Positions 6,001 to 12,000 of a stretch of 48,513 bases of DNA are shown here, one piece after another. Source of the stretch: a virus. Its lineage: Duplodnaviria > Heunggongvirae > Uroviricota > Caudoviricetes. The stretch lies in IMG/VR virus record IMGVR_UViG_2547132252_000025; one strand, given 5' to 3'. Position numbers: made by a program. Numbering within the stretch: the stretch's first letter is position 1; every line of letters begins with the position of its first letter.

Positions 6001-9000
6001 CAACAGGCCACCCTGCAATGGCATATTGCATGGTGTGCTCCTTATTTATACATAACGAAAAACGCCTCGAGTGAAGCGTTATTGGTATGCGGTAACGCCG
6101 CGCTCAGGCGGCTTTGATAGTCATATCATCTGAATCAAATATTCCTGATGTATCGATATCGGTAATTCTTATTCCTTCGCTACCATCCATTGGAGGCCAT
6201 CCTTCCTGACCATTTCCATCATTCCAGTCGAACTCACACACAACACCATATGCATTTAAGTCGCTTGAAATTGCTATAAGCAGAGCATGTTGCGCCAGCA
6301 TGATTAATACAGCATTTAATAAAGAGCCGTGTTTATTGAGTCGGTATTCAGAGTCTGACCAGAAATTATTAATCTGGTGAAGTTTTTCCTCTGTCATTAC
6401 GTCATGGTCGATTTCAATTTCTATTGATGCTTTCCAGTCGTAATCAATGATGTATTTTTTGATGTTTGACATCTGTTCATATCCTCACAGATAAAAAATC
6501 GCCCTCACATTGGAGGGCAAAGAAGATTTCCAATAATCAGAACAAGTCGGCTCCTGTTTAGTTACGAGCGACATTGCTCCGTGTATTCACTCGTTGGAAT
6601 GAATACACAGTGCTGTGTTTATTCTGTTGTTTATGCCAAAAATAAAGGCCACCATCAGGCAGCCTTGTTGTAAATGTTGCAGGTATCAAGTAAGTAATTA
6701 GATGGAGCGCCATAAATTATGAATTCATCGTTTGTCGGGTCCATCTCCATCTCTTGTCCTATTGCCATTCTTGCGTCAGTGTCGTCAGCGGCGAAGCATA
6801 AAACAGCCCACGCACCCATTGTTTTAAAAAGAACTGCAATTGGCTGTGGTTTTACTGAATTTGCGTTAGCGCGAAAATCACAAATCGCACTTTCATGAAA
6901 TTCCATATATCACCTCAAATAAGTGGTTTGCTGCCTAATTTCATTTTCTGGCGACCAACACAAGTCATCTTGCTGTCAGTTGTTTGGATTTACGGTAGCC
7001 TGCCGCGTAAAGAGCTACATTTGGAAGACAAGTTGAGCCTTCATATTTTCTGGTCAACGTTGTCAGTGTTATTACTTCTGCTCTCATTGCTGGTTTGCGT
7101 TTGCATTGTAAGACCACTCGTGATGGGGTTGGCCTGTGTAGTTTGTCGGAGCTAATCGCCTCCTGACTTTGCAGGTTTGCGCGACGAGCTCTACGGCGAG
7201 AAGCTGCGGTGCCTTTAAATTCTGTTTTTCTGGACATAGATTCCTCCCGAATAAACTTTGGCGATGCAATCTCGAAGCTCCTCCTGAGACGGTTGCTTCG
7301 GCATTGCATCCCACAGCTTATGTGGTTGGGTGATCTGGCTTTTCAGCCACGTAGTCGAGAGTCGACGTTGTTTAAAGAGCCTGCCAGTCTGTTCCATTTG
7401 GCTTCCAGCGTCCTGCTGATGGTTAAATAGTACGATATGTACTTCACTTGGTCAATACAATTTGTTCTAAAACGGGGCGTTTTTTTACAACGCTTTGTAT
7501 TTAATAGTATTGTTTTTTAGCGTGGGTGTATTGCCTCGGCGATGTAAGGAGAGATCAGAATTGCGTTGTTTAGTGAGTTGTATCTATTTATTTTCCAATA
7601 AATACAATTGGTTATGTGTTTTTTTGGGCGAGAGGAAAAGAAAACCCGGCATGGAGGCCGGGTTGATGATTAGCGGTGTGGCCTTGAGCGATAATGCTCA
7701 CACACATGTTCAAGATTTCCATGCCTTATCCGTTCATAGGCATTCACATGAACTTCTCGATCGAATTGGTCATTCAAATTGTATGTAGACATCTGTGTTT
7801 TCTCATATTGGCGGCAGCCCTACAACCGCTTGAAAAAATGTACCAGACGCGCTAAGGTTACATCGCAAATATTGTGTACCTTAACAAGGGCTCCTTTTGG
7901 AGGCTCTGGTTAAACAGCATCAATGTCGGACTGGGGAGTTGGACATTGTGCTGAATGCTTTTGCATTATTGAGGCCGAACGTAAACCTTCAGAATTGAAG
8001 AGATGCGTTCGGCTTCTTCGTTTGTGATATCGTTAGGAATGCCTTTAATCGTTACTGTAACCCCTGATTCAGGTCGAAGAACTACTGGAAGATCATAGGT
8101 ATGAAGTGCATTAGCCTTGCCTTCGACTTTTGTTGGTTCGCCAGTCAAATCTTTTTCCTCACTGGATTCTTTGTCAATCGGAGTGTATGGGATTTCTTCA
8201 CCAGACTGGAAAGCTACAAACTTTTTGATTGCACTTTCCATGCGGCTTTTATATGCAGTAATGCTGCTGTCGCTAGGCTTCGGCTCAGTTGCGTTGATGT
8301 ATCGCTCGGCAAGCTCATTCACATCAAGCTGAGTAACATCACCCATTTCCTCTTCTTGGACTACCGTTAAGAGGCGAGCGGATGAGTTTTTTAAATTTCG
8401 AGCGGTGGCCTCCTTCATTATGTTCAGCGACATAAGCTCTTCAAGGAAGTCCTTGAATGCCTGCACGCTAACGTTTGACTTTGCCATTTGCTCTCTCTCT
8501 AAGTTATTGACTCAGATCGAGTTTATCCAGGAATTGATTTGCATGCAAGACTCAAGTCTTGAGAATTTCCGTTCAAGATCCACTCTCAATAAAAAAGGCC
8601 GCACCTCTGCGACCTTTCATCTCCTAAATCTCTTTTCTCTTACCTAAAGAAACAGCAGGCTGGGTCAGCCCTAACAACTTCAAGTGCATCGGTCAGAGAA
8701 AGCTCCGTGCTATACAGGTGTTATTTCATATCTTTTTGCATCCAATAAATTTTCCATCTGTCCAGAGAGCGGATGCACTTGATTCTTGTTGATGGCAGGA
8801 CGTTTTTTCACCTGCCTCACCCTGCCATACAGGACGCTGCTCACCGATATCTATCGTCCGGTCATTGATGTTATAGACAATATCCAGATCATTACGGATA
8901 TACTCAGATGGCCTTATGCTTTCAATGAATAGATGAACTTCTTTTTGACCGCTTGATACTCATGGCCATTAAACTCCATCTATCCTCTTTACCCAAACGT

Positions 9001-12000
9001 CTCTTCAGGCCATTGGCTGGCGATAACTTTCCCCACAACGGAACAACTCTCATTGCATGGGATCATTGGATATTGCGGGTTTAGTGGTTGTAGAAACACC
9101 TGACCGCTATCCCTGATCAGTTTCTTGAAGGTAAATTCATCACCACCAAGTCTGGCTATGCAGAAATCGCCGGGCTCAACAGCTTGCTCAGGGTCAACCA
9201 GAATTAACATCCCGTCAGGAAAACTAGGTTTGGAACCTGTTGGTGCGGTCATTGAGTTACCTTCAACCTCAAGCCAGAATGCAGAGTCACTGGCTTTTTT
9301 GGTTGTGCTTACCAATCTCTCCGCATCACCTTTGGTAAAGGTTCTGAGTTCTGGAGAGAACATCCCAGCCTGAACATGAGAAAAAACAGGGTACTCATAT
9401 TGTTTTTTAACTGGGGCCGATGAGTATTCGCCAACAGGTGAAAATGTCCCGTCGTGGTTGAATGATATGTTATCAATACCAAGGTATTTAAACACCACAC
9501 CAATATCACTAAGAGATGGATGACGAGATCCGCGCAACCAGTGTCCAATTCCACCCTGCGTCATACCTAGCTCTTCGGCTAACTTCTCTTGAGTTATGCC
9601 GAGCTCTTTCATTCTGGATCTAGCCAGTTCATACCATTTCATTTTCATGTCCTTATTATTACGCTCTGTACTGGAACCATCCATGCACAATGTGTATTTT
9701 TACTTGTATTTGAGAAGTACATATTGTATTTTTTTATTCGTGGTTACTATGGAGGGCATATGAGCAACCTACGAAAATATCGAGAGTCACTGAATATCTC
9801 TCAAACAACACTTGCTAAGGCAGTTGGATGCACACAGGGAGCTATCGGACATTGGGAATCTGGTCGTCGCTTCCCAGACCTTAAAACATGCCGTGCTCTT
9901 GTTGCGTGTCTAAACAAGTTAGGCGCAAAAGTAAGTCTTGATGACGTGTTCCCGCCGGAGCACAAAGCCGCTTAATAAGCGGAGCCGCTCTTTGTAACAA
10001 CGGACATTCGTCCTACGTCGCTGAAAAGCGAGTCCCAAGATATCTGACCAACTAAGGCCATATGCGTTTCCACGCATACCTTTCAACTAACTATTCACTA
10101 TTGGAAATCTTAAGAAATGGAACGAACAAGTTACAGCAAACTATCACAGCGCGACGTTGATCGCGCAGAAACAGATTTACTCATCAACCTGTCAACGCTT
10201 ACACAGCGCGGTCTGGCAAAGATGATTGGCTGTCATGAATCGAAGATAAGCAGAACGGACTGGCGGTTTATTGCTTCGGTCTTGTGTGCTTTCGGAATGG
10301 CATCAGACATCAGTCCGATTAGCAGGGCTTTTAAGTATGCGCTTGATGAAATCACAAAGAAAAAATCCCCGGCTGCCACCGAGGATTTTAAGCAAATTGA
10401 TATGCAATTCTGAGGGAATTACTGGATCAATCCACAGGAGTAATTATGACAAAACGTCGTAAGAAATACCAGGAAAAAGAAGAGATTCGACACCCTGATT
10501 CACCTGAGGGATTAGTGGTAGCCGCAGCAAATAACAGGGCGTTCGCAGAGCGCCTTGTTGGTGTTTACAGACTAGCCAAAGCAGGAGTGAAACATGGGCG
10601 TCGTTAAGTTAGCTGATTACAGGCCTCAACTGGAGGTCGTGGAGCATCGCGTGGCAGATACCGAAGATGGTTTCATGCGCGTTGCTAACGAGATTACCGA
10701 CAGTCTGCTGATGGCTGATTTAACCGTCCGGCAGTTGAAGGTGATGCTCGCTATCATGCGCAAGACATACGGATTCAATAAGCCGATGGATCGACTCACA
10801 AACACGCAGATAGCAGCCATGACAGGTATTCATCACACTCATGTTTGCGCTGCCAAGCGCCAGCTTATTGAGCGTAAATTCCTCATTGCTGATGGCGTGA
10901 AAATCGGAGTGAACAAGGTGGTTTCTCAGTGGATTAGCCAGGACAGCTTAACATTAGCTAAAACAGCTAATAAAACATTAGCCAAGTCGGCTAATGGGTA
11001 TAAGCCAAGTCAGCTAAACACAAAAGACAATATACAAAAGACAATAAATACAAATACCCCCTTACCCCCTAACGGGGATGGCGATGGGCAGGTTAAACCT
11101 GAACGTCGCAAGGCAGAACGAATCGACTACGAATCCTTCCTGAACGCCTACAACACCGAAGTCGGTGACAGACTTCCACACGCTGTTGCGGTCAACGAGA
11201 AACGAAAACGCCGCCTGAAGAAAATTATCCCGCAACTGAAAACGCCAAACGTGGACGGTTTCAGAGCGTATGTCAGGGCGTTTGTGCATCAGGCCAAGCC
11301 GTTTTACTTCGGAGACAACGACACGGGCTGGACGGCAGATTTTGATTACCTGCTGAGGGAAGATTCGTTAACGGGAGTTCGGGAAGGGAAGTTTGCAGAC
11401 AGGGGGATTGCATGAGACAGGATATCGAAGCTAGCGTTATCGGTGGCCTGCTGATTGGTGGATTAACTCCAACCGCCAGTGACGTTCTGGCAACGCTGGA
11501 GCCGGAAGCGTTTTCAATTCCGCTCTACCGGAAAGCCTTCGAGGTTATTCGCAAGCAGGCGAGAAACAGAAACCTAATCGATGCGCTGATGGTTGCCGAG
11601 GCGTGCGGAGAGGAGCATTTCACGTCAATCCTGATGACCAGCAAAAACTGCCCGAGTGCCGCAAACCTGAAGGGATATGCCGGAATGGTCGCGGATAACT
11701 ATCACCGCCGTCTGGTGCTGGAAATCATGGATGAAATGCGTGAACCAATCCAAAGCGGAACCATCGACGCATCGAGTCAGGCGATGGATGAACTTGTAAA
11801 GCGTCTTTCAGCCATCAGAAAGCCCCGTGACGAGGTTAAACCTGTACGGTTAGGGGAAATCATCACTGACTACACTGACACGCTTGACAGGCGTCTGAGG
11901 AACGGAGAAGAGTCAGATACCCTGAAGACCGGAATCGAAGAGCTTGACGCTATCACTGGAGGGATGAACGCAGAAGACCTGGTGATTATCGCCGCTCGTC

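Follow-up and report, generated by a model that had tools for sequence, protein, structure and literature searches.

How does a phage whose operators and Cro protein are unlike those of lambda come to make a repressor that ends almost exactly as lambda's does? The question is raised by the cI gene of a 48,513-nucleotide viral sequence, IMG/VR record IMGVR_UViG_2547132252_000025 (the window, meaning the whole stretch), which matches in the immunity region and the presence of Shiga toxin 2 genes (stx2) identify as a Stx2-converting lambdoid phage. An earlier note, made from the sequence alone, had proposed a recombination junction inside cI that exchanges immunity specificity and keeps the RecA-cleavable domain. 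The analysis reported here indicates that the gene very probably encodes a natural chimera, namely a CI repressor of the VT2-Sakai/Nil2 immunity type with a lambda-type C-terminal module recombined within cI. The mosaic is real, but it has already been described and is very common: Fattah et al. (2000), in the summary given in PMC10742460, found homology between VT2-Sa CI and lambda CI to be high in the C-terminal part and low in the N-terminal part.

The junction inside cI

Comparison of window positions 6001-12500 with lambda 34500-40500 (NC_001416) by blastn gave a single match inside cI, in which window 8993-9399 aligns with lambda 37231-37637 over 407 nucleotides (nt) at 93.4% identity, with 27 mismatches and no gaps (E = 1.5e-177). 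Base-by-base alignment places the switch in identity at window 9399|9400 (lambda 37637|37638), with homology beginning at a Tyr codon; over the 249 nt preceding the junction, ungapped identity to lambda is 27.7%, which is chance level, and 3 of 83 encoded amino acids (aa) are shared. This sharp switch bears out the proposed junction and is the opposite of the uniform divergence that the earlier note had named as the refuting result. On the minus strand the intragenic mosaic junction occupies 9397-9402, between Gln83 and Tyr84 in the 219-aa numbering used here, which corresponds to Glu100|Tyr101 of the mature lambda protein and to codons 101/102 of the lambda gene; the earlier note had put it near codons 90-100. 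The junction sits within the inter-domain linker, ten residues ahead of the lambda Ala111-Gly112 cleavage site. Identity switches a second time at the stop codon of cI (GGG TAA in the window, GGC TGA in lambda), and each of the 12 comparator phages ceases to be homologous to the window within 8989-8993. The C-terminal module is therefore a shared island of about 400 bp, flanked by mosaic boundaries in the linker and at the stop codon.

The earlier description of this domain as lambda-identical holds for the protein and not for the DNA. Across the 136 codons from YEYPVF to ETFG there are 28 nt differences from lambda, 27 of them synonymous and one nonsynonymous, so that 135 of 136 residues are identical; the corresponding Nei-Gojobori estimates are 0.39 substitutions per synonymous site (dS) and 0.003 per nonsynonymous site (dN), with dN/dS of about 0.008. 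The module is under very strong purifying selection. The sole residue difference is a Leu (TTG, 9313-9315, residue 112 of the 219-aa CI) at the position of lambda Trp129 (TGG); this Leu is common to the window, ev207, ev017, 2G7b and E212, and Trp is kept in Dewey, Louie and 683R2.

Both halves of the protein carry recognizable domains. Pfam assigns HTH_3, a helix-turn-helix (HTH) family, to residues 11-58 (E = 1.9e-10) and Peptidase_S24 (PF00717) to residues 87-209 (E = 1.1e-28). Among solved structures, CI matches the full-length lambda repressor 3bdn (E = 2.6e-96), near-identically from YEYPVF to the C-terminus, as well as the lambda C-terminal fragments 8gmu, 2ho0, 1kca and 1f39. The lambda-type C-terminal module (8993-9399, minus strand) combines the cleavage-site region with the S24 catalytic, dimerization and cooperativity domain. 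Within it, also on the minus strand, lie the Ala94-Gly95 codons equivalent to the Ala111-Gly112 autocleavage site (9364-9369, in the context HVQAGMF, the same as in lambda) and, by alignment with 3bdn, the codons for Ser132 (9253-9255, context EGNSMTA), equivalent to the Ser149 nucleophile, and Lys175 (9124-9126, context FTFKKLI), equivalent to the general base Lys192. With an HTH domain, a Peptidase_S24 domain with its Ser-Lys dyad and an inter-domain Ala-Gly site, the protein has the features of an autocleavable repressor of the lambda CI/LexA type, and the retained half is the one predicted to be RecA-cleavable.

The N-terminal HTH DNA-binding module of VT2-Sakai/Nil2 type, together with the proximal linker (9400-9648, minus strand), has no nucleotide match to lambda. 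Its DNA is 91-100% identical in Stx phages, ev017, 2G7b, E212, Dewey and Louie. At the protein level, the N-terminal 83 residues match lambda repressor N-terminal structures weakly by phmmer (E of about 5e-4 to 3e-3), and the HTH core is 30% identical to that of lambda over 50 aa by BLASTP. From these comparisons the domain is a distant family relative of lambda's and not a lambda-type domain. The view that the HTH domain, cII and N are unlike lambda accordingly needs softening: cII and N are likewise recognizable distant lambda homologues, at 35% aa identity each (BLASTP), and none of the three is unrelated.

The gene itself is annotated in AP012540 as a coding sequence at 8989-9642 on the minus strand, encoding 217 aa from ATG 9642, within an open reading frame (ORF) at 8989-9690 (minus strand) that has cro and then cII to its right. 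An AAGGA motif, read from the sequence, stands 7 nt ahead of ATG 9642. The extent first given, 8989-9648, starts instead at an in-frame ATG two codons upstream and yields 219 aa. RefSeq/PGAP-style calls give cI as 231 aa from ATG 9684. This longer form is probably an over-extension, because its start would fall inside operators OR2 and OR3 and upstream of the annotated promoter PRM.

Taken together, these features suggest how the chimera would work. The N-terminal HTH domain (about residues 1-65), with the proximal linker up to residue 83, is predicted to bind the phage's own 17-bp operators, three at the right operator region (OR) and three at the left (OL), thereby repressing the promoters PR and PL and, indirectly, the Q-stx2 late genes. 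From Tyr84 on, the module would supply the Ala-Gly cleavage site and the S24 autoprotease with its Ser/Lys pair, as well as the surfaces for dimer formation and for cooperativity between dimers, and prophage induction would proceed, as in lambda, by RecA*-stimulated self-cleavage at Ala94-Gly95. Lambda-like dimerization, cooperativity and self-cleavage are expected because the module matches lambda at every residue known to matter. The exchanged half holds the HTH domain and lies beside operators and a cro gene that differ from lambda's; the exchange of immunity specificity put forward earlier fits this arrangement and is a prediction from sequence.

Several points weigh against this account. 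We infer operator binding, RecA-dependent cleavage, heteroimmunity with lambda and the mechanism of recombination from sequence, and for the first two the basis is identity or homology to lambda together with AP000422 annotations that are themselves labelled 'putative'. The lone Trp129 to Leu change falls near the start of the C-terminal domain. Heteroimmunity with lambda may be partial: some cross-immunity between lambda and VT2-Sa was reported by Fattah et al., as summarized in PMC10742460; the same paper gives weak, micromolar binding of lambda CI to the VT2-Sa operators. Finally, the direction and number of exchanges are not reconstructable from the 11 C-terminal alleles compared.

Origin of the mosaic

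The same C-terminal module is found behind several different DNA-binding domains. A search of a protein collection with the C-terminal 136 residues yielded 293 proteins at E <= 1e-40, and 115 usable sequences (113 database matches plus the window and lambda CI proteins) were sorted by their N-termini into three large families, namely a lambda type, a VT2-Sakai type and a third type of 212-217 aa, with several minor groups besides. Each of the three families is joined to C-terminal modules ranging from 60 to 100% identity. Pairs drawn from different families reach 95-99% identity C-terminally at 17-27% N-terminally: the window and lambda proteins share 99% of the C-terminal module, P0007, P0008 and P0004 share 96-99% across N-terminal families, the Citrobacter koseri pair P0041/P0049 is 95% identical C-terminally and 25% N-terminally, and the Salmonella enterica pair P0024/P0055 is 95% and 27% identical, respectively. 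By comparison, C-terminal identity is just 80-87% between proteins of the same N-terminal family from other genera. P0040, which comes from E. coli and has an N-terminus of the third family, matches the window CI at 99 of 99 residues from AFWLEVEG to the end, and its cleavage-site linker is divergent, which places its junction at a different position, about 35 residues further downstream.

Recombination is also detectable within the module. In a four-gamete test on the 11 alleles, 142 of 780 site pairs were incompatible, which corresponds to at least seven recombination events within 408 nt. Over these 408 nt the window differs at 35 positions from Dewey and at 35-36 from Louie and 683R2, which have the same N-terminal type, and at 28 from lambda and 21 from PhiR5_2; distances in this half do not follow the N-terminal type. 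Because at least three N-terminal families carry the module, more than one junction position is seen and recombination has occurred internally, the sequences argue for repeated exchange of the module, with breakpoints in more than one place, and the window junction is one successful outcome. In the phage collection, no VT2-Sakai-type N-terminal domain was found with an unrelated C-terminal domain; all full-length phage cI genes inspected that have this N-terminal domain carry the lambda-type module.

An interpretation without recombination is that the gene descended vertically, its DNA-binding half diversifying towards a new immunity while purifying selection froze the C-terminal half. The N-terminal domains are still homologous (HTH_3, 30% over 50 aa; phmmer E of about 5e-4), and a dN/dS as low as that of the C-terminal half is what such freezing would leave, but we consider this interpretation scarcely credible, because C-terminal dS is only 0.39 beside 249 nt at chance identity and with length differences, a combination that excludes simple vertical descent. 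It is also at odds with a switch completed within about 3 nt, with C-terminal similarity that is incongruent with N-terminal family in the E. coli, Salmonella and Citrobacter koseri pairs, and with recombination inside the module. If the gene stemmed from just one, recent exchange with lambda or with a phage of lambda immunity, the 135 of 136 identical residues would be accounted for; this too is very unlikely, if a little less so. The nucleotide identity to lambda is 93.4%, and the closest lambda-immunity allele in the phage collection, that of PhiR5_2, reaches 94.9%; no lambda-immunity phage with more than 99% C-terminal DNA identity to 8993-9399 was found among 50,697 phage records. Moreover, the chimera has itself diversified, with Dewey, Louie and 683R2 at about 91% in both halves, and it is widespread: of 5426 complete E. 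coli genomes, 776 (about one in seven) contain the 201 nt that span the junction (9300-9500) at >=80% coverage. With nucleotide identity of only 93%, the sequences argue that the exchange was neither recent nor with lambda itself, and that it is one instance of repeated shuffling and not a single event.

A further proposal, which refines rather than opposes a chimeric origin, is concerted evolution, in which gene conversion or recombination among co-resident heteroimmune prophages keeps the module alike within a host lineage and the junction is just one among many short-lived products of crossing-over that are sorted by a functional filter. We regard this as somewhat better than an even prospect. 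C-terminal alleles group by named host and not by N-terminal family (window, lambda and P0040 in E. coli; likewise in Salmonella and in Citrobacter koseri), the module contains at least seven recombination events, and one E. coli allele is entered at two different junctions. However, only some clusters have a named host, a small sample was handled without formal recombination or phylogenetic methods, and a host factor, RecA for example, could add to the same pattern through selection. Our preferred reading remains a chimera that arose by homologous or illegitimate recombination within cI among enterobacterial prophages sharing the C-terminal module, which on this reading still recombines between phages with different N-terminal domains.

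Operators, cro and the surrounding genes

The immunity region is organized as in other lambdoid phages, with cI divergent from cro, operator sets at both OR and OL, and N to the left of OL. Six putative operators of 17 bp each, with TACA/TGTA half-sites unlike lambda's TATCACCGC, were located by exact match to VT2-Sakai sites; an inverted-repeat finder had missed them, their half-sites being too short and imperfect. On the right, OR3 (9657-9673), OR2 (9683-9699) and OR1 (9715-9731), all on the plus strand, match the VT2-Sakai annotation in AP000422 exactly, and the right operator region (9657-9731) also contains PRM (9655-9683, minus strand) and PR (9704-9732). On the left, OL1 (7428-7444), OL2 (7453-7469) and OL3 (7486-7502) are exact VT2-Sakai operator matches on the minus strand, and a PL-like promoter (TTGACC-17-TACTAT, 7455-7427, minus strand) overlaps OL1 and OL2.

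The cro gene (9760-9975, plus strand) encodes 71 aa of HTH_3 type by Pfam. BLASTP of this protein against lambda Cro gave no match and the operator consensus differs from lambda's, which upholds the earlier statement that cro and the operators are unlike lambda. Cro is 35% identical to the N-terminal domain of the window CI, with the common segment TQGxIGHW, and on this evidence is a paralogue of that domain; such a likeness is as expected, because both proteins would read the same operators. The 3' end of cII and adjoining DNA (10352-10453) are 79% identical to lambda 38592-38693, the region of oop and the cII C-terminus. In Klebsiella phage phiKp_30 (LC768498.2, 856-1406), the same cro and OR are found with only the first ~20 codons of a window-type cI, together matching window 9582-9993, and this stub is joined closely to an OL-like segment (window 7372-7466). 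Most of cI appears to have been lost here by natural deletion, which would make phiKp_30 a clear or virulent derivative.

To the left of cI lies a variable slot, occupied in lambda by rexAB and in the window by about 500 bp without a convincing ORF followed by an ORF of 173 aa (7966-8487, minus strand). This accessory ORF belongs to PHROG 2602, of unknown function (E = 3.5e-102), and has no Pfam or PADLOC match. It is probably expressed in lysogens, because it follows cI and precedes the PRM terminator, and it is a candidate exclusion or lysogenic-conversion gene. The roughly 500 bp at 8488-8988 hold only short ORFs of 44-48 aa and carry no annotation in VT2-Sakai or WGPS8; phage genomes are tightly packed, and such a stretch is unusual in one. 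Rfam, applied to 6500-10600 with gathering thresholds, yielded nothing, so that no known RNA element accounts for this segment. Further left, a lambda-like patch (7549-7664, minus strand) is 87.5% identical by blastn to lambda 35708-35826, just past the end of rexB, and it includes the intrinsic terminator of the PRM transcript (7636-7664, minus strand, annotated in AP000422; terminator scan match 7664-7643). This patch and the cI C-terminal module bracket the accessory slot and could permit cassette exchange by homologous recombination.

The 1.8 kb from cI through OR and cro to cII (8700-10500) are identical in DNA sequence to Stx2a_WGPS8 and 99.3-99.9% identical to Nil2, 2851, 1717, YYZ-2008, Stx2 II, the Morioka Stx1 phage and VT2-Sakai; for cI itself, identity is 100% with Stx2a_WGPS8 and about 99.9% with Nil2, 2851 and 1717. 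With the same cI, operator and cro sequences, the window belongs to the VT2-Sakai/Nil2 immunity type of Stx phages. The possibility that the whole window is Stx2a_WGPS8 was rejected, as colinearity is lost beyond about 15.2 kb: from about 15.2 to 19.6 kb the two are not colinear, with additional sequence in the window, and the ninG-Q region is about 90% identical, so that the window is a different mosaic within the same phage group. stx2A (19975-20934) is 99.5% identical to that of Stx2a_WGPS8, which is close and not exact, and is followed by stx2B (20946-21215).

Significance and comparison with known repressors

The main value of the result is in annotation, in that it shows to which immunity type a Stx2 prophage belongs and leads to the prediction that induction depends on RecA, as in lambda. 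Release of Shiga toxin is controlled at the induction step, and repression by cI ultimately controls late transcription and hence Stx2 production (PMC8951638). The gene also shows, in textbook fashion, lambdoid mosaicism that falls at the boundary between protein domains. A more speculative consequence, to which we give a low probability, is that identical dimer and dimer-dimer surfaces could let the CI proteins of heteroimmune co-resident prophages, for example one of lambda immunity and a Stx2 prophage, form mixed dimers or cooperative complexes. Such cross-talk is conceivable because the module protein is extremely conserved among E. coli phages and is shared by heteroimmune repressors within a host lineage, and the idea is touched on in PMC10742460. 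If it were true, mixed complexes could couple repression strength and induction thresholds, and with them Stx2 release, and might underlie the reported cross-immunity of lambda and VT2-Sa.

Among known systems, lambda CI (NP_040628; PDB 3bdn, 1f39, 2ho0) agrees with the window CI at 135 of the C-terminal 136 residues, among them the Ala-Gly site, the equivalents of Ser149 and Lys192 and the surfaces for dimerization and cooperativity, and lambda as a whole shares the gene order, with cI divergent from cro, and tripartite OR and OL. The differences lie elsewhere. The window CI is without the lambda N-terminal arm and first helix region, with an N-terminus about 13 residues shorter and a total of 18 fewer residues ahead of the junction; the operator consensus and Cro family both differ; and rexAB is replaced by an unrelated ORF. 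The window does not fall in the imm-lambda group (for example, HK542, HK544 and mEp234), as there is no lambda DNA match across the N-terminal domain, OR and cro. PMC8951638 assigns the CI proteins of Eru2/Eru3 Stx phages to Clade I, to which lambda CI also belongs, the overall identity being 61%.

The Salmonella phages epsilon34 (gp46) and L (c2) have the same repressor architecture. According to PMC2629481, the epsilon34 repressor has a C-terminal protease domain about 80% identical to those of lambda and HK97 and an N-terminal part about 50% identical to those of L, VT2-Sa and Nil2, and the operator consensus proposed there for epsilon34, WTACRAWWTGTAT, resembles the window sites. Both halves of the two Salmonella repressors are nevertheless much more divergent from the window CI (in DNA, epsilon34 is 73.6% similar in the C-terminal module and L about 71% in the HTH), and a different immunity specificity is therefore likely. 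LexA and UmuD share the Peptidase_S24 fold and the Ser-Lys dyad at a greater distance (LexA PDB matches at E of about 1e-6), and the DNA-binding domain differs. The closest relatives are VT2-Sakai (Sp5), Nil2, Stx2 II, 2851, 1717 and Stx2a_WGPS8, which have the same six operators at the same positions and show no substantive difference from the window in the immunity region.

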